DNA of 64,000 nt, taken from assembly GCA_000004695.1 (NCBI GenBank), contig CM000151.3, forward strand, positions 4,064,001 to 4,128,000, read 5' to 3'. Below, piece after piece: positions 11,927-45,340 of the stretch. Origin of the DNA: Dictyostelium discoideum (lineage: Eukaryota). Within the stretch, counting starts at the first letter, position 1, and each line of letters opens with the position of its first letter. The translations under genes and the position numbers were made by a program. Under the pieces are notes generated by a model. That model did no database searches, was not told where the DNA came from, and saw only the letters and a list, made by a program, of their open reading frames with translations.

Positions 11927-12230
11927 ATTAAAATTTATAATTATTTTAATATTTAGGCATTAATTTTAAATTCATGTGATTATTTAACAACATCAAATTT
12001 TGCAAAATGTAGAGGAGAGGCAATTAAAACTATAAAGAATACGATGGCAACGTGTAGTAATTTCGAAAAGTTATATTATAATCCAGATTTACAATTAGAG
12101 GATGAGGTTGATCTTGTTCATCAACAACAACAAAAAGAACAAGAACAACAACAAAAAGAACAAGAACAATATGAACAAGAACAATTAATTTTAAAACAAT
12201 TAAAAGAACAAGAATTAAAAAAACAACAAG

Positions 12231-12295
<65 letters not shown>

Positions 12296-13232
12296 AAACA
12301 CCAAGAAGAAAAAGAGAAAAATGATCAAAAAGAAAAAGAAGAGAAATTAAAAAAACAATTATTAGCAGAACAACAAAAACAAAAACAAGAGGAATTAGAA
12401 AGACAACAACAACAATTACAACAACAACAACAATTACTACAACAACAACAACAATTATTACAACAACAACAACAACAACAACGTTCAGATCCAATTATTA
12501 TACCACCAATTACATTAAAAACATCACAATCAGATTTATTAAGTGGTGGATTATCACCAAAAGTGAATTCACCAGGTTCACCCAATTTAGGTAAATTTAC
12601 AGAATCAGCAGAACGTGTTGCAAATTTTGATAGAGGTACAGCAAATATTATATTGAATATGAATAAGATCAAAGAGATATCATTGAGTGGTGATAGTGAA
12701 CAAGCACCAGAGATTGTCACAGCGGCAAGAATCATCTCTGAGAATATCGCTATCATATCCAAGGAATTACGATACAAAACATTGGGTACGAATCTTAGTG
12801 AACATTTCGTATCGGTTGTACAAGTTGCAAGATTAGCCATAAAGAATAAATCAGATCAATTCTATCAGGATCAATTGGAATTGGCAATTGAAAAATTTAA
12901 TGATACAATGCGTAAAATCATTTACTCTGTAAAGAGTATCTCAAAGAGTTCAATGAATCTTAGACAATTTGGTGTTGATGAGTCATCTTTAGGTAGATCA
13001 CCAGTTGTATCACCAGAGAAATCAATTTCACCAAGTTTTACAAGTAGTACAAGTGAACGTATTTTATCACATGAAATTAAAAATCATAATAATAATAATA
13101 ATAATTATAATAATAGTAGTACTAATAATTTACAAACTTCATTTTCAACACCTTCATTATCTTCAAATCATTCACAACAACCAAATCAACAACCATTACA
13201 ATCACCTTTATTAATTAATCAATTACAATCTA

Positions 13233-13263
<31 letters not shown>

Positions 13264-14050
13264 TCTTTCAAATTCTTTAAATTCTATACAACTACCTCAA
13301 GCAACAACTACAACAACAACAGCAACATCTCCATCAACCTCTACATCAACATCAACCTCAACATCACCAAATTCATCATCATTATCAATTTCAGATCAAG
13401 ATAAACAATTAAAAAGAAAAGAAAAACAACATCAAATCGTAATTCCAAAAGATGTTAAAGATTCAGTTGCAAATCAACAACAACAGCAACAACAACAACA
13501 AAATGGTACTACATCACCAAGAAATAATGAATCATCAGTAACAGCAGCAACAACAACAACAACATCAACAACAGCATCAATTACAACAAATGTTAATACA
13601 ATACCAAATTTCCCACCAAATAAACAATTACCAGCAACACCAACAACAGGTACACCATCAACATCAACACCAACACCACAAACACCAACATCAACTTCAC
13701 AAAATGATAAACAGAATGAAAATAATAATAAAGAGAATTTTGTTGACAAACAAAAAACATTGGGTAAATTATTTTCAAAGTTTGTTCATAAAAAGAGAAC
13801 ACCATTACCAGGATTTGATTCATCCAATTCATCATCACCATCAAATAATTCAAATACAACCAATTCATCATCTCATTCTAGTACAAACAGTTCACCAATG
13901 GAAACTTCACCAGGTGTTGAATCTCCAAAAATTACAAAAAGTCCTTCTCAAAATAATATTTTAGTTGATAGTTTAGATATTGGTTCTGATAATCAACAAC
14001 AACAACAAGATAAATTAACAACCACAACTTCAACAACGACAATAACAATA

Positions 14051-14111
<61 letters not shown>

Positions 14112-16816
14112 TACAACAACAACAACAACAACAGCAACAAATACCAACAACACCAAATAAATTATCAAATTCAATTGCAATGAATTCATCAAATAGATTA
14201 ATGACACCAAAGAAAGAAAGATCATTTACAATTGGATTGGTTAGTGGTAAACATTCATGTGTTGTAGTTGAAACACCAAAATCAAAGAAATTATTTCAAC
14301 ATGAATCAGCTAAACAAATACTTTCAATTATTTCAATGAATTTCCCAAGTTTTGAAAAAGAATTTCAAATGCAAAATAGTGAAGTAATCTCTAATATAAT
14401 TGAACAAATTGGAAATGTTATAAAGAATTATCATGATGAAGTTAGTGAATCATCATCATCGTCATCATCATCAACTACATCACCAAATAATATTAATACA
14501 CCATCTGATTGTTCACCAATTTTAAATTCTGAAAATTCTAAAGATAGTCATAATTTATCATCAATTAATAATAGTTCATATGATCCAGTTTCACCAGCAC
14601 TTAGAAAAATGTATGAAAATGGATCATATGATAGTAAAGAACATTCTAGATCATCTATTCAATCAAAGATTACACGAAAATTAGGTACAATTAGAAAGAA
14701 AGGACCAAGTCCATTTAATATGTTATTAAATTCAAGTACAGGTTCATTAAGTAGTTTATATTTAGATCAATTGAATGGTGGTAATGGTGATTCATCATCG
14801 TCATCATCTTCATCATATAATTTAGTTGGTGGTAGTGGTATTAGTGGTTATGATAATCAAAATGAAATTGATGCAAGTGAACATTTGGTTAGTACATCAA
14901 GTTTGTTCACAGAGGAAGCTATTGAATTGGTTAGTAAATGTTTTGAAGCGTCAATCATTGTTAATCATTCAGGTGGTACAAGTAGTGAAATTAAAGCATT
15001 GTTTTCATCGACATTGGATCATTTGGAATCAATGTTACAATCATCGGTAAACTTTGGTAAGATTGACCCATCCTCTTTCTGTATGACTTTCTTAAAGAAT
15101 ATTAGACAACACATTCCAACCATGAAATCAAAAGGTGGTAAATGTGATCCAACATTGGTAACAGCGGCAACTAAATTATTTAGACATACAATTCTATCGA
15201 ATCTTGATAAATCAATTCACTCCCTGTGTCATAGTGTTAGGGTGTTGGCAATTCAAATGACAATCATTGTAATAAGCATCAGTGCTAAACCATGGGATAT
15301 AAGCTCACAATTGCAACTGTTTGCATCGGCAAAGAGTTTCATCGATTCATTGGTATCATTATTGGATGCAGTGGAGAATAAAATTTACATTTCAACCAAT
15401 ACCAACATTCAAGATGATGTCGAAGTACCAACTATCGATGATACAGAGGATACAAATATTTGGGAGGAGGCTGATAGTCCATTAACATTTGGTTGGATCT
15501 CTGATGAAGGTAGTAAAACAGGTCGTTACGTTCCAAAAGCTGGTACATTAAATAAATTAATTTCAGCATTAACTCAAGATAATAAACATGATATATCACG
15601 TTATACTAAAACGTTTTTACTCACCTATCAATCATTTACAAATCCTTGGAAATTAATGGAGAAATTGATTCAACGTTATAATGTACCTTTGGATGAGAAA
15701 CCAGATGTTAGAGCAACAACTCAATTACGTGTGGTTTCATTTATGCAAACTTGGATAGAAAGAAATTTCAATGATTTCGATGATCAACTAATTGGTCAAC
15801 TAAAAGAGTTTAGAACTCGTTTACTAATGGATAATAATAATGATTTAGCGGTTATTTTAGGTGGTTTAATTAAAAAGAAAGAGGCCGAACGTTCACTTTC
15901 AAAGGAAAGATCAACCAATCATTTAACTTTCCCAGAATTAATGATACCAGATGGTCAAAAATCACCAACTGCCCTCTTTTTACTATTAAATGAATCAGAG
16001 ATCGCTAGACAATTAACTCTTATAGATTTCAATATCTTTTCAAAGATTCAACCAACTGAACTATTGGATCAATCATGGAATAAGGATTCATTGAAATTTA
16101 AATCACCAAATGTTATAGAAATGATCAATAGGGCAAATAAATTCTCATTTTGGGTTTCTTCACAAATTCTTTGGCAAGAAGATATTGAAGAGCGTGTTAA
16201 AGTATTTGAAAAGTTCATTTTAATCTCAAAATATCTAAGAGAAATGAATAATTTCAATACTTTGTTAGCCATTTTCACAGGTTTAAATACTGCACCTATC
16301 CTAAGATTAAAGAAAACCTTTGCTTTGTTATCTCCAAATTCTTTATCGATTTATAATAGTTTGGAGAAATTAATGAATTCAAGTGGTTCTTATAAAAACT
16401 ACAGAAGTGTTTCAAAAAATCCACCATTACTTCCTTATTTACCTGTTATCCTTTCCGATCTAACTTTTATGGAAGATGGTAATCCCGATAAAATAAATAA
16501 TCTAATCAATTTCCAAAAGAGAGAACTCATTTGTAGAGTAATTTCAGAGGTTCAACAATGTCAACAACAAACAAAATATGAATTCCCTGTGGTTGAACCA
16601 ATTCATACTCTTCTCACTGAATTACCTTCTTCAACTCCTTCTGAATTATATCAACTCTCTTTAATTCGTGAACCAAGAGAAACTAATCAATCAAATGCAA
16701 ATAGTTCAATTTCTTCTGGTTCAAACTTTTTATCAAATTCTTCAAATCATAATATTGGTAATAATAATGGTTTTGATACTTTAAAAAAATATTATAAGAG
16801 TAGTAATAATAATTAA
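11525..16816 (+). CDS. Ras guanine-nucleotide exchange factor (RasGEF-N + Cdc25-homology catalytic domain); 2 exons (11525..11830, 11957..16816), intron 11831..11956 (GTATGT...ATTTAG)
   Basis: Exon 1 ORF 11525 ends at ...KAAQ|GTATGT. Exon 2 reads ALILNSCDYL...MATCSNFEK in frame with ORF 12044..16816. The C-terminal half has RasGEF-N (GTLNKLISALTQDNKHDISRYTKTFLLTYQSF...) and the Cdc25 catalytic core (...ALFLLLNESEIARQLTLIDFNIFSKIQPTELL...FILISKYLREMNNFNTLLAIFTGLN...). The N-terminus has a Gln/Glu-rich coiled coil. Confidence 0.85.
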
Positions 16817-17768: not shown

Positions 17769-19274
17769 ATGAAAAGTTTAAGAAATTCATATAGTATATT
17801 GTTAAAAATAGTGATAATATCAACTTGTTTATTACTTTTAATAAATATTGCATTAATATATGAAGATCCAAACCTTATAGATTCAAATTGTAAAACGACA
17901 ACAACAATAACAAAAACTCAAAATAATAAAAATAATAAAGGTTTAGAAAACTTAAATAAAAGTAAAAAAAAGTTATTATTAATTTTAGATTATAAATTAT
18001 TTAATGAAGATACTTATATGAAATCGTTTAGTGAGTGTACATCAATAACAAATCAACCACAATGTGGATTTACAACGGATATTTCATTAGCTAATGAATC
18101 TGATGGTATTTTATATTTTATACCAAGAACTACTAAAAAGAATTATAATCGTAGTTATACAAGTGTTCATAGGACTTCAGAGAAACAATTATTCTTTGGT
18201 TGGTCAATGGAATCACCATCAATGTATCCACTTGAAAATGATGATACACATTTATCATTGAATTATAATGTCACGATTGGGTATCCATTAAATGATTATC
18301 AAAAATATGGTGCTGGTGTTAGTGATGAAGAATATGAAGAAAAAGATATCCAATCGTCACATATTTATACACCATACGGACCTGTGCCATTCAAAGGTTC
18401 AGATCATTATTCTTATTTATTTAAATTTGGTAAATTAAAAGAAATACCAAAGAAAAGGGACTCCAATATAATGTGGATGGCAGGTAATTGTAGGAATCAA
18501 AAATTAGGTAGAACTAAATTAGTTAAACAAATGATGCGATTCACCACCATCGATTCCTATGGTAAATGTTTACATAATAAAGATCTAAAAGTGAACTATG
18601 GTCCAAACGTTTTATTAAGGTCATTACAAAAACTCAAAATTTTAAGAAAATATGATTTCGTTGTTGCCATTGAAAATAGTAGATGTGAAGATTATGTAAC
18701 TGAAAAACTTTGGGAACCTCTAAGTGTTGGCACAATTCCAATTTATTTAGGCGCTACAAATATCGATGAATTCTTACCACACCCAGACGCCATAATCAAT
18801 ATTGCCAACTTTAATTCAATCAATCATTTAATGAAATATGTTAGAGATGTTGGTCTAAATGAAACTTTAAGAGAGAAACATTTGGCATGGATAAAAAAAC
18901 CTTTACCAAAGAAATTTAAAAATCTATTAAATCAATCTTTAAATAATCAAAATTTATTTTGTTCAATTTGTAAGAAATTAGTAAATTTAGATAATAATGA
19001 TAATATAAACTATACACCATTATCTAAACCTTTTAAACAATGTATTGAAGGTAAATTCACTTTACCAATTTATACTGAAGAGGAAAAAGAAAGAGGTAGA
19101 CTTTTAAGATTACAAAAACAACAAGAACAAGAGAAATTAGAACTACAAAATAATAATGATAATTATACCAATGATAATGAAGAAGAAGAAGAAGAAGAAG
19201 ATAATGATAGTGGTAATGATAGTGGTAATGATAGTGGTAATGATAGTGGTAATAATGATAGTAATAGTATATAA
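17769..19274 (+). CDS. Alpha-1,3-fucosyltransferase-like (GT10), type II membrane protein, single exon
   Basis: N-terminal signal anchor (ILLKIVIISTCLLLLINIALIY). The GT10 signature region reads ...YDFVVAIENSRCEDYVTEKLWEPLSVGTIPIYLGATNIDEFLP..., matching the FucT motif (FxLAFENSxxxDYITEKxW...G.VPVxLG). The acidic C-terminal tail has a DSGN repeat. Confidence 0.75.
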   Translation: MKSLRNSYSILLKIVIISTCLLLLINIALIYEDPNLIDSNCKTTTTITKTQNNKNNKGLENLNKSKKKLLLILDYKLFNEDTYMKSFSECTSITNQPQCGFTTDISLANESDGILYFIPRTTKKNYNRSYTSVHRTSEKQLFFGWSMESPSMYPLENDDTHLSLNYNVTIGYPLNDYQKYGAGVSDEEYEEKDIQSSHIYTPYGPVPFKGSDHYSYLFKFGKLKEIPKKRDSNIMWMAGNCRNQKLGRTKLVKQMMRFTTIDSYGKCLHNKDLKVNYGPNVLLRSLQKLKILRKYDFVVAIENSRCEDYVTEKLWEPLSVGTIPIYLGATNIDEFLPHPDAIINIANFNSINHLMKYVRDVGLNETLREKHLAWIKKPLPKKFKNLLNQSLNNQNLFCSICKKLVNLDNNDNINYTPLSKPFKQCIEGKFTLPIYTEEEKERGRLLRLQKQQEQEKLELQNNNDNYTNDNEEEEEEEDNDSGNDSGNDSGNDSGNNDSNSI

Positions 19275-19662
19275 TATTAATTTATTATAAATTGTAATAA
19301 AAATAAAATAAAATCCTTTTAAAATCATTTAAATAATTATCTACTTTTTTAATTTTTATTCATAAATATTTAATACTTTTAATTTTTTTCTTTTGATCCA
19401 TGTGTCTGGAAAATATGAGATGCTTTACCAATTGATGCAGGTTTGATTCAAGTATTTGATCCCTCATTATATGACAAACTTGTTGATTAGAATCAACTGG
19501 CAAATACCATCTACAATATTAAAAAATTGATTAATCATCAGTTAATTTTTCCTTATTGACCACCCAATACTTCAATATTTATAAAATAAAAAATTAATAT
19601 TATGTAAAAATGTTAAAAATAATATAATTTTTATTTAATTTTTTAATAAATTCATTATTGAG

Positions 19663-19696
<34 letters not shown>

Positions 19697-20609
19697 ATGA
19701 TAATCAACCAACTTTTTTAACCCCGTTGCTGTCTCAAAATTTTATTACCAAAATTGGATTTTTTTTTTTTTTTTTTTAAAATAATGGAATTTTTATTTTT
19801 ATTTTTTATTTATTAATTTTTATTTTGTGGATCTATTAATTAAGAAATTATTTTTTTATATTTCCCATTGAACATGATCAGAATTTATTTTATAATGAGG
19901 CTACTCAATATTAAAATACTTTTATACACACAAAACAATCCACAAAAAAAATAAAAAATGAAACCGAACCTTTAATTATTTAATTTATTGAAACCATGTT
20001 TAAGTCGGAAAAGGACTGAAAAACTCGGTAATTATAGAGATGGTGAGCAAACTCATCATTGATGGTGATTCAAGTCTTAATAGTCCTTTCTTTAATTTGT
20101 CAATCTCATTTCAAATTAAAGAAATTCCCTTTTGAATAGGCGGAGTAGCATGTCAAACGATCCAACACCTAATAAACACAAAGAAATACTTTTTTTAAAA
20201 CATTTTGAAATACTGGATATTAAAAAAAAAAAAAACAAAAACATTTTAAAAAACAATAAAAAAGTATCATTTAAAAAATAAAACCCAAGGAAATTCTTTT
20301 AATTGGTCTTAAAAAACTCCACGTGAATAGTAAATTATTGTTTTTTTTTATATTTATATATTTATTTATTTTTTTATTTTTTAATATATATTTTTAATTT
20401 TTATTTTTCATTTTTTTTAATGATTTAAAATGTTTATTAAATTTTGAAAAAGATAGGAAGATGGTTTTTTTCTTTTTTTTTTTCTTTTTTTTTTTTAAGA
20501 TATTATTAAATCATTTGCTAGATCTTGGTTTGGATATTTAACAATAATAGGAAACTTATGATGAATAGAAAATTGCTAATAAAAAATTTGAAAATAATTA
20601 CAATGGACA

Positions 20610-20652
20610 GTTGACAGGGTTTTTAATCTGTGATATTTGCTGTAAGGTCAAC
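20610..20652 (-). ncRNA. Class I RNA gene (Dictyostelium-specific small ncRNA, 43 nt): 5'-GUUGACCUUACAGCAAAUAUCACAGAUUAAAAACCCUGUCAAC-3'
   Basis: The minus-strand sequence has a 6-bp terminal stem (GUUGAC/GUCAAC) directly followed by an exact copy of the conserved 11-nt class I motif CCUUACAGCAA. The length fits the 42-65 nt class. A DUSE lies about 60 nt upstream. Confidence 0.6.
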
Positions 20653-20711
20653 TTATTATTTACATATACTTTTAATTTTAAAAAAGTGTTTATTTTGAAA
20701 TAAATTGAACT

Positions 20712-20719
20712 TTGTGGGA
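20712..20719 (-). promoter_or_regulatory. DUSE (Dictyostelium upstream sequence element, TCCCACAA) about 60 nt upstream of the class I RNA 5' end
   Basis: Plus-strand 'ttgtggga' equals minus-strand TCCCACAA, matching the [A/T]CCCA[C/T]AA consensus at the canonical ~-63 position. Confidence 0.5.
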
Positions 20720-20930
20720 TAATCATAAAAAAAAAAAATAACAACATTTCAAATTACCAAAAAAAAAAAAATATAAAATTTAAATTAAAATAAAATAAAT
20801 AAATTATTTATTTTTTATTTTAATTTTTTTTGAAAATCAGAATTATTTATTTTGAAACTATTATTATTTTTCATTGTTTAAAAAAAAAAAAAATTATATA
20901 TTTAATTAAGTAAAATGAAAAATATTTACA

Positions 20931-20972
20931 GTTGACAAAGGTTTAACTTAGAAGGTTTGCTTTAAGATCAAC
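20931..20972 (-). ncRNA. Second, divergent class I-like RNA copy (42 nt; 5'-GUUGAUCUUAAAGCAAACC...UUUGUCAAC-3'), possibly a pseudogene
   Basis: About 80% similar to the first copy over ~65 bp. The terminal stem is retained but the 11-nt motif is degenerate (CUUAAAGCAA), and only a DUSE-like ATCCCAACC lies ~85-90 nt upstream. Confidence 0.3.
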
Positions 20973-21256
20973 TTTTTAACAATTAATTTTTTTCAAATTT
21001 TTTTTTGAAATTTTTTAAATAAAAAAACTTTTCATTATATTTAACAACAAATTTAAGGTTGGGATCTTAAAATAATAATGATAATAATAAATAAAGCTAT
21101 ACAATAAATTGGGGGGTGGTATAATAACTCAAAAAAATAATAATTTGCGTATATTTATTATTTTATAATAATTTAAAAAAATGAAATAAATAATAATTAT
21201 TTAATTGGGTGGTAAAAATAAAAATAAAAATAAATATATAAATATAATATTATTAT

Positions 21257-21293
<37 letters not shown>

Positions 21294-21598
21294 CTAAAAT
21301 AGATGTAAATTACAATTTAATAATTGTGTGGTGGTTAGATTAATGCAAGAATACATTTTTATTTGTCATCTACCATATTTATTATTATTATAATACAATA
21401 CTAATAATTAGTATATTTTTTAATTCAATTTTGATTCAAATTACTTCAATTTATTTTTTATTTTTTTTTTTTTTTTTTTAAAAGAGTATAAATTAGATTA
21501 AAAAAAAAAAAAAAAAAAACAAAACTAATTTTTCATTTTCATTACACAAACATTTATTTTTAAAATTTTTTTTAATATATAATTAATATAATCATAAA

Positions 21599-22167
21599 AT
21601 GGCAGGAGTATGTTTGTGAAAAAAAAATAATAAATAAAAAAAAATAAAAAATTAATAAAAACTAACTAATAGTATTTTTTTATAAATTTTATAAGCCATG
21701 GACTATTGAACCAGGAAAAAATCACGGTGGTATCCCAACTTGGTAATAATTTTTTTTTAGAATTGTCCTTTTTTCCTGTTAATTTACAATTATTATTACT
21801 TTTTTCTAAACTTTTTTTTTTTTTTTTTTTTTTATTAATAGGGCATGGCCAAGATCAACAACAGTACATGTACAAGTTGTAGGAGGTGGAAGAGGAAGAG
21901 TTCGTATGCAAGCTGGGTATGACTTTTTTAATTTGCAAAAAAAAAAAAAAAAAAAAAAATCACCCCCCCTTTGTTTCGCACTTTAAAACTAACATTCTAA
22001 TTATTTTTTTCATTTTATATTATTTTTTTTTATTCTGGAAATAAAGTGCATCACCAGATGAAGATAATGATGTTAATGGAGAAACTTCCTTTAGTAGAAG
22101 TTTTGGTGGTTCCAGATTGAATGTTACCAACATTGGTAGTAGAACATTAAAAGTTTGGACAGCATAA
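21599..22167 (+). CDS. Small 83-aa Gly/Arg-rich hypothetical protein; 4 exons join(21599..21607, 21696..21742, 21842..21916, 22047..22167)
   Basis: A 9-nt first coding exon ATGGCAGGA is followed by GTATGT. The remaining junctions are ttataag|CCATGG...ACTTG|GTAATA, aatag|GGCATGG...GCTGG|GTATGA and ataaag|TGCATC...GCATAA. All phases are consistent, giving MAGPWTIEPGKNHGGIPTWAWPRSTTVHVQVVGGGRGRVRMQAGGASPDEDNDVNGETSFSRSFGGSRLNVTNIGSRTLKVWTA. No family assignment. Confidence 0.5.
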
Positions 22168-22544
22168 ATTTAATCTCAAATTTATAATTTTTTATAGATT
22201 ATTAATTAAACAAATAAATTAATAATAATAATTCACACATTATGACCCACATCAATTAATTAATTCTTTTGATAGAATAAAAAATAAAATAAAAAAATAA
22301 AAAATTTTTAACCACACACTCACACACAAAATTAAAAAAATGTTGTTTTAATTTATTGTTTTTTTTTTTATTTTTAATCAGAAATATTTGACCAAAGGGT
22401 GACTCTTTTATCGAAACTACAAGAAGTTAATAAAAGGTTATCAGGTGTGGGATAATAAAAAATTATTTATTTTCAAGTATTTCAAAAAAATTAAAAATAA
22501 AAAAATAAGTTTTTTTTTATATCCAATAATGGAAATTTTATTTT

Positions 22545-22590
22545 ATTTTATTTTATTTTGTTTTGTTTTGTTTTGTTTTGTTTTGTTTTT
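22545..22590. repeat. (GTTTT)n pentanucleotide repeat
   Basis: 'ttttgttttgttttgttttg...' seen in the sequence. Confidence 0.85.
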
Positions 22591-22769
22591 ATTTTTATTT
22601 GTATTAATTCACTCTGTAAAAAAAAAAAAAAAATAAAAACATTAAAATATTATTTCAAAAAAATAAAAGTTTTAGTTATCTTTAAATTAATCACAATTGG
22701 GTCTAGTAATAGTATATAAAATTGTAAATATTAAAAAAATAATAAAATAAAATTGTAATTTTAAAAAAA

Positions 22770-22816
<47 letters not shown>

Positions 22817-23032
22817 GGAATTATTTCTTTTTTATTATTGATTATTATTATTATTATTATTATTGTTAACTATTTTGTTCCCAATATTTTTTATAAATAA
22901 TTTCCATTTTAATTAATTTATTTGAAATTTCAATTGATTGATTAATTGCTATAAAAAAAATGAAAAAAAAAAAAAAAATGAAAAATTAATATTTTTCTTT
23001 TTTTGATTATTATTTTTTTAAAATTAATAAAA

Positions 23033-23964
23033 TTATTTACCTTGTTTAAAATAAGATTGAGATTGTTTTAAAGAAGTTGGAGTTGAAATACCAAACCAAT
23101 ATATTGGATCTTTTCTTATAATTTTTTTATTTGCTTTTAATTTCTTTTTTTGTTGTTGTTTTTTCACTTTTTCTTGAAATATTTTTTGTTTTTCCTCTTC
23201 AGTTAAGTTTGGATTATTTTCAAAACTATTATCATTATCTTCATCCTCTTCATCTGTATCTGATTCGTCATCATCGTCATCATCACTTGAATTATCATTA
23301 GTTGAACAATTATTTAATAATGATTCTAATGAACCCATTGTGGTAACTCCATTTGATGAGGTTTTAATAATTGGTTCTTTTGAATTTACATTTCTTCTTC
23401 TAGTTGTTGTTGTCGTTGATGATGATTGTTCTTTACTATTTTTATTATTACCTATGCTGCTATCATTATTTGATTTTGCCTGTTTATTGTTGTCATTATA
23501 TTGTATAGATAAAAAAGTATCATCTTTTGTGTCATAACTATATTTACAATCTTCTCTATATATGTATATATTTATGTTTAAATGTTGTAAAAATTATATA
23601 TATTAATAAATAAGGAAAAATACCAAACTAAAATCATATATGTCTAAAAATGTACATTTTCACATTAAACAATGGTTTCATATTTTCTGGATATTGTAAT
23701 TCACCTAATGATTTTTGACCCATTGAGTATTTAGATTTGCTTATTAGAAAATAACCCTATATATATGTATTTTTTTTTTTTTTTGTAGATGTTAGTATTA
23801 CGGAATTATTAATTCAAAAAAAAAAAAAAAAAAAAAAAGTGATAAATTTATATATTTACATTTTTTAAGTTTTCATTAAATTGGTCTCTTAATATTGTTA
23901 ATTGTTCATATTCATTTAAATATTCAATAATTAACTCTTCATTTCCATCTTTGTTACTAACCAT
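23033..23964 (-). CDS. Vma22/CCDC115-like V-ATPase assembly factor (~242 aa); 3 exons complement(join(23033..23555, 23656..23756, 23860..23964))
   Basis: Exon 1 MVSNKDGNEELIIEYLNEYEQLTILRDQFNENLKN ends at |GTAAAT. The intron has a TACTAAC branch motif and acceptor atatatag|. Exon 2 reads GYFLISKSKYSMGQKSLGELQYPENMKPLFNVK, donor AT|GTACAT. Exon 3 runs in frame through ORF 23033..23338. The C-terminus ...RKDPIYWFGISTPTSLKQSQSYFKQGK matches the CCDC115/Vma22 signature ([21 protein letters not shown]). Confidence 0.55.
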
Positions 23965-24246
23965 TTTCAAAAAAAAAAAAATAAAAAAATAAAAAAAAAA
24001 AGGTTTATATGTATACAAATAAAATTTTAAATTAAAATAAAAAAAATAAAAAAAAAAAAAAAAAAAATTTTTACTTTTTTTCAATTTAATTTTATTTTAT
24101 TTTGTTTTAAACACACAAAACCACTTTTTTTTAATGAAAAACCAGGGAATAAAAAGTTTTTTTTTTTTTTTTTTTAAATTAATAAATTTTTTCAGATTCA
24201 AAAACAAAAATACAAGTTAAAAATAAATAAATAAATAAATAAATGA

Positions 24247-24869
24247 ATGAATGTCGACGATATATATGCTGATATTATAATTGAAAGTGAAAATGATCAA
24301 GAAAATGATATGAAACAATCTGATGAAAATTCACAATCACCAACATTAAAAGAAGATCATCATAATAAAATTAAAGAGTTTGAAGAAATTATAGAAAATA
24401 ATCTCAAAGAGATTTCAAACCTCAAAAAAGAAATTGAATCAAAAGATAATGAAATTGAAACTCTATCTAAACAAGTAAGTAAAATTAAATATAATTTCAG
24501 TTATATATTTATATAATAGAAAAATAAAAAAATAAAAAAAATAAAACTAAAAACAAAACATAATATTAATTTATTTTATTTTTTTTTATTTTATTTTAAA
24601 AAAAAATAATAAATAAAAAATTAAACAATTGTTGAAAATAAAAAATAAAATTTTAAAAAAAAAAAAAAAGATGACATTCCAAAAAAGTAAATGAAATATT
24701 ATTAAAAAACATTTCATGCTTGTTTAAGACATCATTATTAGAAATACAAAGAAAAGAAAAGGAAATAAATAGTTTAAGAGATGAATTATCAAATAGTAAT
24801 AAAAAAGTTCAATCGTCTAACCCTGCAAATAACCGTCAACACATAAATTATGAAATGCCTAAAAAATAA
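24247..24869 (+). CDS. Small coiled-coil protein (~122 aa); 2 exons (24247..24474, 24729..24869), intron GTAAGT...TTTAAG
   Basis: ORF 24247 ends ...ETLSKQ|GTAAGT. The acceptor cttgtttaag| opens TSLLEIQRKEKEINSLRDELSNSNKKVQSSNPANNRQHINYEMPKK*. It is divergently oriented to the Vma22-like gene, about 280 bp apart. Confidence 0.45.
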
Positions 24870-25161
24870 AATAAAATAGATCAAATTACAAAAAAAAAAA
24901 AAAAAAAAAAAAAAAATTTAATAAAAATAAAAAAATAGTTTTTTTTTTTTGATTTAGATATTTTCAATCATTGTTAAATTGATTTTACGGGGTTATTTTT
25001 TCACGGGTTTAAAAAAAAACAACTTTCATAGGGGAATCAATAAAAAAAAAAAAAAAAAATTTTTATTTTAAATTTTAATTTTATTAATTTTTTTTTTTTT
25101 TTTTTTTTGAACACACATTTTTATTTTTATTTTATTTTATTTTTTTTTTTTAATTTTTTTT

Positions 25162-25195
<34 letters not shown>

Positions 25196-25270
25196 GGTTT
25201 AATATTTAATAATATCAAGTTTACATTTTATTCCTTTTTTTTATACACTCTCAACCTATTCAAATATAAT

Positions 25271-27779
25271 ATGACTGGTAGGTTATTCAAATTTATTAAT
25301 TTTTTTTTTATTTTTTTTTTTTTATTTTTTTTTAATTCTCAGATTTTTTTTTATTTTTTTATTTTTTTTTATTTTTTTATTTTTTTTTATTTTTTGGCTT
25401 TTTTTATTTTTTATTTTTTTATTTTTTTTACTTTAAATAATAGGACTAACCTTTTTTGGTTAAAATTTTTTTTTTTTTTTAAAAAAATCAAAAAAAAAAA
25501 AAAAATTAGATTATAGTAAAGCAACAGATGGTACAAAGGTTATTCATGATGATCCATGGTTGGAACCATATAAAGAAGTAATTAAAAGAAGACATAATCA
25601 AGTTAAAAATACCATTCAAAAATTGGAAGAAAGTGAAGGTAGTTTATTAAAATTTTCTCAAGGATATGAATACTTTGGTTTCAATGTTACAAAAGATGGT
25701 GTAAACTATAGAGAATGGTTACCATCTGCTCATGAAGTTTATTTAGTTGGTGATTTCAGTATGTATTTTTAAATTTTTAAAAAAAATTAATTTTATTTTT
25801 ATTTTTTTTTTATAAAATAAAATAAAATAAAATAAAATAAAAAAAAAAATATATATAAAAAAAAAAAAAATAAAATAAAATTAAAATTAATTATTTTAAA
25901 AATTTGAAATCCATACAGATCAATGGAATAAAACAAGTCATCCACTTGAAAGAGATAATTATGGTAGATGGAGTATTTTCATTCCAAATAATTCAAATGG
26001 TGAATGTGCAATTCCACATGGTTCAAAAATTAAAGTAAGTTTTTATTTTATTTTATTTTATTTTTATTTTTATTTTTTGATTCTAATTGGGTTTTTTTTT
26101 TTTTTTTTTTTTAGATTTATTTAAAATTAGCAAATGGTAATTTTGATTATAGAATACCAGCATGGATTAAAAGAGTTGAACAAACCAAAGAGAATCCAGT
26201 ATTTGATGGTGTATTTTGGAATCCAAGTAAACAATATGTATTTAAGAATAAATCACCAATGAAACCAACAGAGTTGAGAATTTATGAAGCACATGTTGGT
26301 ATGTCAAGTGAATTACCAGAGATATCAACATACAGTAAATTCAAGGATACTGTATTACCAATGGTGAAGGAGTTGGGATACAATTGTATTCAGTTGATGG
26401 CAGTTATGGAGCATGCCTATTATGCATCGTTTGGTTATCAAGTGACAAATTTCTTTGCAATCAGCAGTAGATTTGGCACACCGGAGGAGTTGAAAGAGAT
26501 GATTGATAAAGCACACGAGATGGGATTGTTGGTGTTTTTAGACGTTGTTCATAGCCATGCATCAAAGAATGTGTTGGACGGTCTCAATCAATTGGACGGC
26601 ACCGATCATCATTACTTTCACTCGGGTGGTCGTGGAAATCATGAGTTGTGGGATAGCAGATTATTCAATTATGGCAATTGGGAGGTGATGAGATTCCTTT
26701 TATCGAATTTACGTTTCTACGTTGACGAGTATCATTTCGATGGATTCAGATTCGATGGTGTAACAAGCATGATTTACACTCATCATGGTTTATCACCAGC
26801 ATGCTCATACGACGACTATTTCGGTGGTGCTGTCGACGAGGATGCGTTAAATTATCTCACTTTGGCAAATGTTATGCTCCACACATTGAATCCATCAATT
26901 GTCACCATCGCAGAGGAAGTCACTGGTTTAGCAACACTTTGTCGTCCATTTAGTGAGGGTGGTGGTGATTTCGATTACCGTTTAGCTATGGGTATACCTG
27001 ATAAATGGATCGAATTGGTCAAGGAGAAAAAAGATGAAGATTGGAATATGGGTACTATCGCTCACATGCTATCGAATCGTCGTTACAAGGAGAAGAATAT
27101 AGCATACGCCGAATCACATGATCAATCATTGGTGGGTGATAAAACTTTGGCATTCTGGTTAATGGATAAGGAAATGTATACAAATATGTCTGTCACAACC
27201 GAAGAGACTCCAATCATTGATCGTGGTATGTCTTTACATAAGATGATTCGTTTGATCACTTCTTCATTGGGTGGTGATGGTTATCTAAATTTTATGGGTA
27301 ACGAGTTTGGTCACCCAGAATGGGTGGATTTCCCACGTGAAGGTAATAACAATAGTTTACATCATGCTCGTCGTAGATGGGACCTCTATAGAAATCCATT
27401 ATTAAGATATAAACAATTACGTGACTTTGATATTGCAATGAATAAAGCTGAACAAGAATTCCGTTGGTTATCTTCCGATTTCGCTTATATCTCTTTGAAA
27501 CATGAAGATGATAAAATCATAGTTTTCGAACGTGCTTCTCTTATCTTTATCTTTAACTTTCATCCATCTAAAAGTTTCTCTGATTATAGAATTGGTTCTG
27601 GTGTACCAGGTAAATTTATAAATGTTTTAGATTCTGATCGTAAAGAATTTGGTGGTCATGTTCGTATTGGTAAAGATAATTATCATTATACTGAAGATAA
27701 ACCATGGCATGATAGAAAATATTCTTTATTAATTTATATTCCATCAAGAACTTGTTTAGTTTTAAAAAAAGTTGATTAA
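25271..27779 (+). CDS. glgB: 1,4-alpha-glucan (glycogen) branching enzyme, GH13; 4 exons join(25271..25277, 25510..25758, 25919..26034, 26115..27779)
   Basis: Exon 1 ATGACTG|GTAGGT. Exon 2 (M T)[34 protein letters not shown]...LVGDF matches the GBE1 N-terminus; donor A|GTATGT. Exon 3 [39 protein letters not shown]|GTAAGT. Exon 4 [23 protein letters not shown]... continues into ORF 26259..27779 ([45 protein letters not shown]...[10 protein letters not shown]...GNEFGHPEW). Strong identity to human GBE1 throughout. Confidence 0.9.
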
Positions 27780-27902: not shown

Positions 27903-30900
27903 TTAAAATAAATCTTTTTGAGATTCAGCTAAATTTAATAAAATATCATCAATATTTTCAATTGGTTTTGAATTTGGTAATTGATTTTGATGATCTAATT
28001 CAATTTGACGATGATGTTTTGATTGATCAATTTTTAATTCAAATTCTTTTGCTTCATTATCAAGTGTTGTCCATTCATCAATGATTCTAACAGCATTTTC
28101 AAGTTTTGGAGTTTTTGTGAGAGGATTATTACAAAGATCAATGGTTTTAGCTTTTGATTTTGATTCTTGATCACACCAAGTTTCACACCATAACCATTCT
28201 TGTGGTAACGAATGAATTCTAACATAATGTTGAAGATAATTTGGTAAATCTTGATCAAGATTGGCTAAACTATTTGGATCACGCGATAATTGATCATAGG
28301 TTGCTCTAAGTTGATCACCAGCTGCTAAACGACGGAATCTAACAAGATCAACGACGTAGAGAGCAGAGATATGATAGGAACGACCAGCTAAATGTTGTCT
28401 CCAATAACCAGATTTCCAGAATCTGAAACCTTCGGTATCCTTATTTGAGTCACAAAATGGTGTGTAACCTAATGAGGCGCCATGGAGATCCATATCCCAA
28501 AGTTCTTTCAAATCGGTACGAACTACTTGATCAGCATCAACGAAAATAATCTTTGGTACATCCAATGGGAAGAGTACATCAAGGAAGAGGATCTTATAAC
28601 TCCAAATGATTCTTTGTTTTTCAGTTTGTTTACGTAACCACCATGGCCATTTATAAGTTACCAACTCATATTGGAAACCATACTCTTTTGCCATCTCTGG
28701 TATGAATTCTTTAAAAGCTGGTGATAAATAATTCTTTAAAAACCAAAATTTAATTGGTGATTCAGTATTCTTTACGACGGATAACATCATAATCTTTAAA
28801 AATCTTTCATAAAGATGACCACTTGCAACTGAAAAAATATGAATTGTATCTAAATTTGATTTCTTTTGATGAGTAGCGACACTATCTGTTGCGTCATTCT
28901 TTGAACTGAAAAGATTTGAAAAGAAGCCACTACTATTTTGTTTTAATTTTTGTTCTTTTTCTTGTTCTTTTTGTTTTTCATATTCATCAATTGGTTGAAG
29001 TATTGGTCTTAATTCTTGACCAGCTTTACGAACCACCGATAGAGATGATAATGATTGATATAAACTATCGATTACAACCAAACGATGTGGTACAATTACA
29101 AAGGTTTCCTTTTCTTTTTGATTTGGATGATCAACCATATCCATTATATCAGAGGATCTACCTGGAGCAATTGTTAATTTCCAAATACCAGGATTGGATT
29201 TCAATTGATAATAACCGAAATTATTCATAACTATAGTATCTTGAGTTTTATTTGTTTGTGTTGAAATTGGGTTTAATAATAATTCTAAACCTGCTGGAGC
29301 GTTATCAGTTGTCATATCATTGGCACTACCCTCGATAACTATATTCTCCAATTCATAAACTGCAGTTAAAACTTGTTCATCACCTAAATCTTTTAGACGA
29401 ATATTATCAAGATCATACTTGGCAATGATTGGTTGAACTAACCAACTTGATGGTATATCCAAAGCCAATGTTACAACACGATCCTCTGGAATATCAGTTG
29501 CAATACCTAATGGTTGATTATAAAGTACATTTTCATTATTAAATTCACTTGATAGCTTAATAACATAAGTATAATAAGTCTTTAATGGTAATTCTGATAA
29601 TGATACAGGTGGATTTAAAATTACATCAACTGGTATATTTAATTTATTTGAAAATTCTCTAACCATTGGTACTAATTTTTGTGAAACTTTATTAAATGGA
29701 TTAATAATCATTAAAAATTTTAATGGTACATCATTTGAATTTGAAGAAGAAGATGATGATGATGATGATAAAGTTGGTGGTTTATGACTAAATGAAATTG
29801 ATAATGAATTTGGAATTCTTTTTCTTTTAATATTTGAATCTAATTGATTGTTACCATTATAATAATAACCAACTAATGATTGAACTTTATTTAAAAGATC
29901 ACTAATTTTTAAATTTGATTTATCTTTTAAAATTGGATCAGAATTTAATAATTCAAAAGTTTTTTTAGCTTTAATCATTTCAATTTCTAAGAGTAATTTA
30001 AAATCAGATTGAATGAATGATGCAGCGTCATCATATGATAGTGGTGGTGTAATAATTCTACCATTTACAAGTATTGAAAGTGGTGATTTATTTGTTGATT
30101 GGATACCAAGATATTGTTTACAAACTTTTGAACTTTGTTTGAAAAGATTAACAGATTGTGCAACCCAGATATCGTTAGCAGCAATATCGAATCCACTCAA
30201 CTCTATGATTTGTTTCATCGTTTTAAAAGAATCGATAATTGTTGGATCGGATTGAACCTTTTCAAATAACCCAATCACCAATTGTGGTGTCAATATTTTA
30301 CCATAGTGTTTTAATATTGTGATTAGTTTACCGAGAATTTGATTTTCATTACCGGCTGTATTGACAACACTATTGATATCGATTGGATTGGAAATGAATG
30401 TTAATTTACAATTTTTTAATTCACCCTTTTCCAATTGTCTTAATAATTCCAATGAGATATCTCTAGTATTGTAATGATCGAAATCACCAATTACAATTAA
30501 ATTTAATAAATTTTGTTCATCTTTATTCTCATTATTTCTAAAATATAATAAATTCTTTAAAACATTTTGTGCATCAACTTCTTGATTTCTATTCTTTGAA
30601 TTTGTAATTAAATGTGAATATTTTTCATTTGAAATCATTGAATTTAATTTTTTTAAAAATGGTAAATTATTATCTTTCCAATATGAACTTGTTAAAATTG
30701 TTTCATAATATTGTGCTGTTGTTGTTGAAAGTATTGATTCTTTAAATAATGGTTTTAAATTATCAAATTCATCATATAATGAAACTAACAAATCAAATGA
30801 TAATTGATCAATATTTGAATATTTAACTTGAACACCATTTACAAATACTTTTGGTAATATTTTTGTAGTAGTTGTTGTTGTTGTTGATTGCGATGTTGTT

Positions 30901-31209
30901 GTATCAAGTAGTTCTAATCTTTCAATTAATTGATTTGAACTTTCTAAAAGATTATCAAAATCAGTATTTGTTAATGCATGTTGTAAAGATCTAACACTAC
31001 CACCCATTTGTTGTAAAACTGCTTGAAATGATGATGAAAGTACAGATCTTGTAATACCAAGTTCATTTGGAATATACATTTTCTTAAAATAATTTAAAGC
31101 AGTAATGAAAAAGAAAGCACCACGATTACCTAAATTTGAATTTTTAATAGTAAGGAAAACTTTTGCTAAATCTTTACCTTGAATGAAATTTGATGTTTGT
31201 GAATTTTGA

Positions 31210-31244
<35 letters not shown>

Positions 31245-32123
31245 TGATTTTGTATTAAAAAGTAATTGAATTCTAGTTGGTATTAATGAATTTCCTTGTA
31301 CCATTTCTTGAATTTCAGGTATGATTTCAAATGTATTAATATTATTCCAATCCAAGACAATAACGGTTGTTAATAGATTCTTTCTGATAAAGATATCTTG
31401 TGGTGAAGTTACGGGTTTATCCAATACTGATGATTGTAATTTTGGCTCCCATTGACGGTAAATGTAATCCAATTCTAAATTATTTAAAGATACAAATGGT
31501 TCATTACCACCATTCAATTCTAGTTCTTCTTTAGTTGGTAATAATTGAATACGAATTGGTAATTGAGCAGAGATTATATCCTGTACAGTCTTTGATGATA
31601 GCGGACCCTGTTGTTGGATTGTAGTGGAATGTTCATACTCTTCTAAAATGATTCTTGATAATTCAATTGGACTAAGTTCATTCGTGTCTATTAAACGACC
31701 GTTTAAAAGCAATGTTTGGTCAGTAGTGGATGGGATTATCTTTTGATTTGACTCAATCACCGATTTCAATGATTCGTTTAATGTTATCTTTGATAATGAA
31801 TTTGAAAGTGTTGGAAACTTTTGAGAAATATATTCCAACGATCTCAATGGGTCACCTGATTGAATGATTTTTTGAGCACTTTGAATACCCAAATCTTTCA
31901 ATTCCCAAACTTTCAATTCTTTAGCCTCTTGACTCTTTGCCATTAAATATGATCTAAATGTTGATAATTTACTTGTTAATTCTGGTTTTCTCTTTTGTAA
32001 TTTATGAAAATTAAATCCTTGTACATCTTCATTTGGTATATTAATTATAGTTTTTGATTTAACACCATCAATAATTATATCTTAAAAAATAAAAATAATA
32101 TTAGAATCAATAATAATAATAAT

Positions 32124-35955: not shown

Positions 35956-36491
35956 GTAGTATAAATAATAGTATAAAATTAAATATAAATAATAATCCAA
36001 AGTATAAGATGGGTTTTGGATTTAAACATGGTGGAAAGAATTTATCATCAAATTTTTCAATTAATGATCATAGTATTGATACTGATAATCCTTCAATGAC
36101 AAGTTCTTCAATTACTAGTAATTCCTCAATGAATAGTTTTTCATCCTCTCCAAGTAGTTCTCCACCAAATGATGATATCAATGATAATAGACATACAAAT
36201 AATATCAATAGAGTAGCTACAAATGGTGATGGTAATGTTGATGGTGGTGGTGGTGATAATATTGGTGATAATGATTCAAGCTCTTTAAATAGTAGCAGTT
36301 ATCAAAACCATCATAATCATCATAATCATCACCGACACAATTTTAATAATGATAGTAATAATAACAGTTATTCCCCATCAACTAGTCATAATGGAATTGG
36401 AGGTGATGATTTCCTCTTACCATCCCCTTCTCTATTACCCTCCTCTTATAATTTAACTGTAACTGTTTTACCTGATCTTAAATATAAATAA
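33612..36491 (+). CDS. Atypical Rab/Ras-like small GTPase with huge poly-Q/poly-N insertions and a long low-complexity C-terminus; 2 exons (33612..33750, 33934..36491)
   Basis: Exon 1 MKKLFDIISPSKNIQQQSASGKESSSSSSSSSPSPSKNRSCFNGIG ends at |GTTAGT. The intron holds an (AAT)n run, with acceptor ttttatag|. Exon 2 has G1 (IVLLGGYQVGKSS), switch I (YIPTIGID) and G4 (ALFANKSD), but G3 reads FWDVAYAE instead of WDTAGQE. It runs in frame into ORF 34140..36491. Confidence 0.7.
33808..33900. repeat. (AAT)n microsatellite in the intron of the Rab-like gene
   Basis: Perfect trinucleotide run seen in the sequence. Confidence 0.9.
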
Positions 36492-39356: not shown

Positions 39357-39439
39357 GCAAGGGTAGGAAAGTCTGGTTAAATCCGTGTGACTTAAGATCT
39401 CATCCATTCGGTTCGCGAGTTCGAATCTCGCCTCTTGCA
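39357..39439 (+). tRNA. tRNA-Leu (anticodon UAA), type II with long variable arm
   Basis: Acceptor stem GCAAGGG/CCTCTTGC plus discriminator A, T-arm GCGAG-TTCGAAT-CTCGC, anticodon loop C-T-TAA-G-A, long variable region. The anticodon call is the least certain part. Confidence 0.65.
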
Positions 39440-45239: not shown

Positions 45240-45269
45240 TATGATCATTCTATTTTTATAAAAATTTTG

Positions 45270-45340
45270 TGCGTATGCTGGGAATCGAACCCAGTTCGCA
45301 TCCGTGGCAGGGATGCATCATACCACTAGACCACATACGC
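45270..45340 (-). tRNA. tRNA-Gly (anticodon GCC), 71 nt
   Basis: Minus strand: GCGTATGTGGTCTAGTGGTATGATGCATCCCTGCCACGGATGCGAACTGGGTTCGATTCCCAGCATACGCA. It has a canonical cloverleaf, anticodon loop CTGCCAC, and T-loop GGTTCGATTCC. Confidence 0.8.

Follow-up and report, generated by a model that had tools for sequence, protein, structure and literature searches.

The window analysed here is a stretch of 64,000 nucleotides (64 kb) from chromosome 2 of Dictyostelium discoideum (positions 4064001..4128000; window coordinate + 4,064,000 gives the chromosomal position), and its subject is a pair of neighbouring genes of the class I RNA family, r42 (DdR-42) and r43. The family was the subject of a dedicated re-evaluation by Kjellin et al. 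2021 (PMC7919456), and supplementary files 7 and 19 and Table S2 of that study were the sources for the annotation. In the published GFF (PMC7919456), chromosome 2 (DDB0232429) carries the minus-strand class_I_RNA features r42 (DDB_G0295507) at 4084607..4084652 and r43 (DDB_G0295509) at 4084929..4084972. An earlier note, made from the sequence alone, had described a canonical class I gene (copy 1) with a divergent second copy (copy 2); at the same offset of 4,064,000, copy 1 coincides with r42, and copy 2 (window 20929..20972) with r43. The minus strand of window 20652..20608 is identical over 45 nucleotides (nt) to the curated DdR-42 sequence GTTGACCTTACAGCAAATATCACAGATTAAAAACCCTGTCAACTG in the supplementary code (PMC7919456), and the published MEME site for r42 (TTTATGATTA TCCCACAA AGTTCAATTT) agrees with the window flank. 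The placement of the window is therefore based on three things: the exact match to DdR-42, the agreement of the flank of the promoter element DUSE, and two coordinates that share a single offset; r43 was compared with its published record by coordinates and scores only, not by sequence string. Both hairpins are genes already annotated, namely r42 (DdR-42, expressed) and r43 (a degenerate neighbour), so that the description in the earlier note is correct and already known.

With the 3' UG(U), which belongs to the annotated RNAs, the lengths are 45-46 nt (copy 1) and 44 nt (copy 2). The earlier note had given sizes of 43 and 42 nt; the letters of its spans are correct, and DdR-42 shows no difference from copy 1, whose 43-nt span merely leaves out the 3' UG(U). 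The start sites of r42 and r43 are 320 nt apart on the same strand, so the two are close neighbours as had been noted, though at a distance above the 300 bp given there. Of the two genes in this chromosome 2 cluster of class I RNAs (r43-r42), r43 is the upstream one. The members known from cDNA have accession numbers in the GFF and r43 has none, which suggests that its annotation is of computational origin. The r41-r62 annotation probably goes back to Avesson et al. 2011. In the literature searched beyond PMC7919456, there was no mention of DdR-42, DdR-43 or their gene IDs.

The r42/DdR-42 gene occupies 20607..20652 of the minus strand, with a curated sequence of 45 nt (20608..20652) and a dictyBase GFF feature of 46 nt that ends in CUGU; the minus strand of 20610..20652 reads GTTGACCTTACAGCAAATATCACAGATTAAAAACCCTGTCAAC. 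The 5' stem strand GUUGAC (20647..20652) begins at the invariant +1 G and pairs with the 3' stem strand GUCAAC (20610..20615), giving a terminal stem GTTGAC (20652..20647)/GTCAAC (20615..20610) of six Watson-Crick pairs. The 3' strand is followed by the conserved UGU at 20607..20609, and a genomic CTGT at the 3' end is conserved in class I genes (PMC7919456). Directly 3' of the 5' stem strand is an exact match to the 11-nt class I motif, CCUUACAGCAA (20637..20647, minus). As DNA, this 11-mer (CCTTACAGCAA) occurs once in the 64-kb window, at this place, versus 0.02 copies expected by chance. The length of 45-46 nt and the GC content of 0.38 are inside the published class range of 42-65 nt and 32-41% GC (PMC7919456).

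The DUSE of DdR-42 is TCCCACAA at 20712..20719 (minus), 60 nt upstream of +1 (published duse_dist 60; in this convention '60' means 59 nt between TCCCACAA and the +1 G). In the class, a DUSE is expected ~60 nt ahead of the transcription start or else of a TGTG box. A DUSE at 60 without a TGTG box is a configuration that DdR-42 shares with DdR-35 and DdR-36. The exact octamer is present twice in the window against 2.04 expected; because its count equals chance, it is not significant alone and its weight comes from position. Downstream of the gene, starting 13 nt after CAACTG, the minus strand has T-runs at 20581..20594 (T4 at 20591..20594 and T6 at 20581..20586), which are candidate terminators for RNA polymerase III (Pol III). 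The sequence of copy 1, its 6-bp stem, the exact 11-mer and the perfect DUSE 60 nt upstream, all reported in the earlier note, were thus borne out base for base. The variable loops of the two loci are represented by AUAUCACAGAUUAAAAACCC (r42) and ACCUUCUAAGUUAAACCUUU (r43). The second exact DUSE TCCCACAA in the window is at 26646..26653 (minus), antisense within an alpha-amylase open reading frame (ORF); it was rejected as a promoter, since two copies are the chance number and no class I-like or other noncoding RNA (ncRNA)-like match lies downstream of it.

The second locus, r43 (DDB_G0295509), spans 44 nt at 20929..20972 (minus); it is a degenerate copy of a class I gene and probably a pseudogene. 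The minus strand of 20931..20972 reads GTTGATCTTAAAGCAAACCTTCTAAGTTAAACCTTTGTCAAC. Its 6-bp terminal stem is GUUGAU/GUCAAC, in which the sixth pair is U-G; none of the other sequences in a set of 28 has U-G there. The motif is the variant UCUUAAAGCAA (20957..20967, minus; TCTTAAAGCAA as DNA), with two mismatches to the 11-mer, C>U at position 1 and C>A at position 6. The motif positions T3, C6, C9, A10 and A11 are near-invariant, and position 6 is so across Dictyostelia (PMC7919456); r43 therefore departs from the 11-nt motif by having A for C at one of these positions.

The upstream region of r43 contains two possible promoter relics. The element TCCCAACC at 21057..21064 (minus), 85 nt upstream of +1, may be a decayed DUSE; it has three mismatches to the consensus TCCCACAA and does not qualify as a DUSE. 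Its TCCCA lies inside the 57-90-nt span of real D. discoideum DUSE distances, and in a post hoc test TCCCA was rare in AT-rich tiles, with a chance of ~1.4% for one per 60-nt zone. The heptamer AAATTTG at 20994..21000 (minus), 22 nt upstream of +1, has one mismatch to the TGTG box AAATGTG and might be a decayed copy of it. It is 63 nt downstream of the DUSE-like element, where 60 +/- 1 is expected; the chance of a TGTG-box site with at most one mismatch within +/-3 nt, likewise calculated post hoc, is ~1.6%. A T5 run follows at 20918..20922 (minus), 6 nt after CAACUG. Both r42 and r43 show the conserved features of class I gene ends (PMC7919456): the +1 G is preceded by AA, the 3' end has the genomic CTGT, and T-runs follow downstream. 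The hairpin of copy 2, its variant motif and a DUSE-like element ~85-90 nt upstream had all been described in the earlier note, and each of them was found, with TCCCAACC at 85 nt. A lesion in every functional element of r43 (DUSE, TGTG box, the C6>A change in the motif and the U-G pair) fits a decaying gene. Judged by its sequence, r43 is probably a decayed gene and a probable pseudogene, not a random match.

Covariance models (CMs) support the family membership of both loci. The Rfam model RF01414 (Dicty_Class_I_RNA) matched both end to end, with 39.9 bits for r42 and 28.1 bits for r43; neither reaches the gathering score of 41.5 bits, and for this reason the default Rfam scan did not list them. 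An own CM was built from 29 other curated D. discoideum class I RNAs, with DdR-42 and r43 left out and the 6-bp terminal stem as its only structure, and the whole window was scanned with filters off. The r42 locus scored 46.8 bits (E 2e-10) and r43 39.7 bits (E 2e-8), and the next match reached 12.1 bits. The CM check that had been proposed in the earlier note thus singles out r42 and r43 in the 64 kb. The published CM in Table S2 (PMC7919456) gives 38.7 bits for r42 and 31.6 bits for r43 (threshold >=25), and the published classifier gives 56.2 versus 26.6 (threshold >=32). The scores of r43 are therefore split: it is above the cut-off of the published CM and stands out in the own CM, and it is below the cut-off in Rfam and in the classifier. 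On this sequence evidence, r43 is a homologue that is not classed as an expressed gene. The match of 12.1 bits is an 18-nt mini-hairpin, GTTGATTAGAATCAACTG, at 19482..19499 (plus; E 0.59), which matches class I RNAs in its stem ends and its 3' CUG but lacks the motif and the loop. It is located 1.1 kb from r42 on the opposite strand and is probably a chance match, although a collapsed relic is conceivable.

The terminal stem was also examined in the family alignment including both loci. There, 97% of the stem cells are paired and 4 of the 6 pairs show compensatory changes; these values were reached in 0 of 500 shuffles, and slid controls collapse. Single-sequence folding of the two loci was uninformative, with z-scores of -1.1 and -0.1.

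The published expression data (Table S2, PMC7919456) separate the two loci. DdR-42, with its DUSE TCCCACAA at 60 nt and no TGTG box, has 61/62 reads at 0 h, 462/606 at 4 h and 570/599 at 8 h, and its read coverage was validated. The record of r43 has 0/0 reads at 0 h, 4 h and 8 h (six libraries); its best DUSE candidate AACCTTAA has score 0, and nothing was scored as a TGTG box. In 2021 r43 received no DdR name and it is missing from the curated BED and FASTA files (PMC7919456). Over the 150 nt that precede r43, MEME found no motif, and high-scoring candidates without a correctly placed DUSE were not expressed (PMC7919456). The suggestion of the earlier note that one copy is decaying agrees with these records: r43 has no scorable DUSE, a mutated near-invariant motif position and zero reads. 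From the raw counts of Table S2, the share of DdR-42 rises from ~12 to ~64 per million class I reads, ~5-fold by 4-8 h, although normalisation to total class I reads is crude. Its relative rise at 8 h is the largest in the family, where the median is ~1.0, and DdR-42 is the second-rarest expressed member.

These counts have to be read with the sequencing design in mind. The published RNA-seq mapped only full-length 50-nt reads (Methods, PMC7919456) and sampled 0, 4 and 8 h; mature RNAs of 44-47 nt are thus undercounted, because they are unable to yield 50-nt reads. All five members of 42-45 nt (DdR-42, r43, DdR-44, DdR-45 and DdR-62) have low or zero counts. The reads of DdR-42 probably derive from 3'-extended precursors, and the reported silence of r43, DdR-45 and DdR-62 may partly be an artefact of the read-length filter. 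A primary transcript of r43 that reaches the T5 run would be ~51-55 nt long and would be expected to leave 50-nt reads; the libraries hold 4.8 to 10.5 million class I reads each, with none from r43.

Clusters of non-identical class I genes have been published as typical of the family. The earlier note had proposed a local duplication, and this was not supported: local alignment of the 150 nt upstream of both loci scored 26 (mean of dinucleotide shuffles 29.4), and that of the 150 nt downstream scored 31 (29.1). The variable core of r43 is 52% identical to that of DdR-42, versus 63-68% to those of DdR-44, DdR-62 and DdR-45. A tandem duplication from r42 to r43 was rejected on these two grounds, namely flank similarity not above shuffles and a core nearer to DdR-44, DdR-62 and DdR-45; an ancient duplication behind the pair is possible. 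No curated DfiR sequence of D. firmibasis resembles the variable core of r42 or r43. According to the 2024 assembly paper of D. firmibasis, most class I genes are species-specific, with rapid turnover between D. discoideum and D. firmibasis.

A similar arrangement is known from the DdR-29/DdR-45 pair on chromosome 2 (8304314..8304369 and 8303965..8304009, minus). As in r43-r42, two non-identical class I genes lie ~300 nt apart on one strand; one is expressed with a proper DUSE, and the other is short (43 nt), without a DUSE and essentially unexpressed. The loop of DdR-45 and r43 also have TTCTAAG in common. The silent copy is downstream in DdR-29/DdR-45, whereas it is upstream in r43-r42, and DdR-45, unlike r43, retains a perfect motif and its name. 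DdR-42 itself may be compared with DdR-21, with which it shares the stem sequence, the 11-nt motif and the logic of the promoter. DdR-21 differs in its length of 55 nt and in its DUSE at 90 nt with a TGTG box, and its published counts are ~10,000 times higher.

The r43-r42 pair is intergenic, since no ORF of at least 50 amino acids (aa) overlaps 19329..21705, and an intergenic position is reported for every class I gene of D. discoideum in published work. The earlier note had stated that neither copy is detectable from an ORF track; this is true of the ORFs, yet both loci have been annotated for years, apparently via pattern or CM searches. The pair is flanked by a GT10 fucosyltransferase ORF (17769..19274, plus) and the alpha-amylase ORF (26259..27779, plus). 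The gap between them, 19275..26258 (~7 kb, 15-18% GC), holds the pair, and its longest ORF is at most 107 aa. An intergenic gap of ~7 kb is long for the compact D. discoideum genome, and this one may hide small or intron-rich genes, or more ncRNAs. In the same AT-rich gap, 25901..25989 (minus) gave a weak match to a fungal C/D-box small nucleolar RNA (Afu_264, 27.7 bits vs gathering 40, E 0.28).

Farther out, the window contains an ORF for a RasGEF-domain protein of 1590 aa (12044..16816, plus) and one of 1346 aa for a UDP-glucose:glycoprotein glucosyltransferase (UGGT; 27903..31943, minus), which is probably one exon of a longer gene. The GC content of the window, 15-35%, is as expected for Dictyostelium. 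Two tRNA genes were found, tRNA-Leu(UAA) of 83 nt at 39357..39439 (plus) and tRNA-Gly(GCC) at 45269..45340 (minus); the former was absent from the gathering-mode Rfam scan, but it was detected with 49.1 bits in the permissive scan and also by ARAGORN. At 36224..36336, weak matches to microRNA-precursor models (26-27 bits, E 0.35-0.42) over ~110 nt on both strands suggest a long palindromic hairpin or inverted repeat.

Taken with the annotation and the identity of the sequence, the CM homology, the covariation of the family stem, the promoter positions and the published read counts make it very probable that the annotated r43-r42 cluster consists of a working gene, r42, and a family paralogue, r43, that has lost its function. 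In DdR-42, the DUSE TCCCACAA 60 nt upstream would direct transcription from the invariant G. The polymerase is probably Pol III, which has been suggested for class I genes given their T-runs (PMC7919456), and transcription would probably end at the downstream T-run. The resulting RNA of 45-47 nt would close its ends in the 6-bp stem and leave CCUUACAGCAA and the short variable loop mostly unpaired. The RNAs of class I are found mainly in the cytoplasm (PMC7919456). According to published work, the RRM protein Rnp1A (Cibp) binds directly to DdR-21, and knockout of DdR-21 perturbs early development. By analogy with DdR-21, DdR-42 would also be cytoplasmic, be bound by Rnp1A and take part in controlling early multicellular development. 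In r43, the DUSE and the TGTG box would have degenerated, the C6 of the motif would have been lost and the sixth pair weakened to U-G, in line with the absence of detected transcripts.

Several observations weigh against the reading of a working r42 beside a defunct r43. Both r42 (39.9 bits) and r43 (28.1 bits) score under the Rfam gathering score of 41.5. The minimum free energy (MFE) structure of DdR-42 alone at 37 C (-4.1 kcal/mol, z -1.1) does not contain the terminal stem; the stem therefore rests on family covariation and on the published prediction at 22 C. A function of DdR-42 and its binding by Rnp1A are proposed through homology with DdR-21. Moreover, both the zero count of r43 and the low counts of DdR-42 come from the 50-nt-only pipeline, so the published reads do not demonstrate that r43 is silent, and the abundance of DdR-42 is probably underestimated.

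The last point leads to the most serious alternative, in which r43 is a live class I variant, low-level or stage-specific, with the promoter TCCCAACC + AAATTTG and the altered motif UCUUAAAGCAA, that was missed by the sampling of 50-nt reads at 0, 4 and 8 h. The read filter excludes mature RNAs of less than 50 nt, and low or zero counts in all five short members (42-45 nt) are the pattern that such a bias would give. Besides, r43 has kept the 6-bp stem, the 5' G with its preceding AA, the CTGT end and the T-run, it scores 39.7 bits, and its DUSE-like and TGTG-like elements, at 85 and 22 nt upstream and 63 nt apart, have roughly the right spacing. We nevertheless consider a live r43 unlikely. 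Its DUSE has a published FIMO score of 0, and high-scoring candidates without a correctly placed DUSE are not expressed (PMC7919456); a transcript of ~51-55 nt to the T5 run could give 50-nt reads, and there are none among 4.8-10.5 million per library. The near-invariant C at motif position 6 is mutated, and DdR-57, which has the same A at position 6, also has zero reads. On a wider version of this reading, the whole 42-45-nt subclass (DdR-42, r43, DdR-44, DdR-45 and DdR-62) may be far more abundant than reported, since reads below 50 nt were discarded.

Two other explanations are much less probable. The r43 locus might be a chance pattern match in AT-rich intergenic DNA that was never a gene. 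The 2006 Fragrep pattern was GTTGRCCTTACAGCAA ... GTCAACTG, and r43 has exactly the two mismatches tolerated by the 5' part GTTGRCCTTACAGCAA; 11-mers with at most two mismatches number 8 in the window versus 9.1 expected, and no experimental accession is attached to r43 in the GFF. Such an origin is very improbable in the face of the full-length CM match, which has E ~2e-8 in the window and, in the published v6 search of the genome, E 0.006. A genuine class I gene also lies 320 nt away on the same strand, and r43 has features that the pattern does not cover: AA ahead of the +1 G, the last of the four bases of CTGT, the T-run, and a rare TCCCA in the DUSE range. Least probable of all, by a small step, is that the hairpins are pieces of a longer transcript (the untranslated region of an mRNA, an intron or a long noncoding RNA). 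The ~7-kb gap between large ORFs (19274..26259) is long enough to raise this idea; against it, DdR-42 passed the published read-coverage validation and has its own DUSE at the canonical distance, and the class I genes of D. discoideum are reported to be intergenic throughout.

The reading from the sequence alone was enough to identify correctly an ncRNA gene specific to the lineage, together with its promoter element and a degenerate neighbour. Its value as a discovery is small, since dictyBase has listed both loci for years and the 2021 study re-evaluated them. The residual value is methodological and concerns the class I family: the expression figures for short class I RNAs are affected by the 50-nt filter, and the conclusions touched by it are the silence of r43, DdR-45 and DdR-62 and the low abundance of DdR-42.

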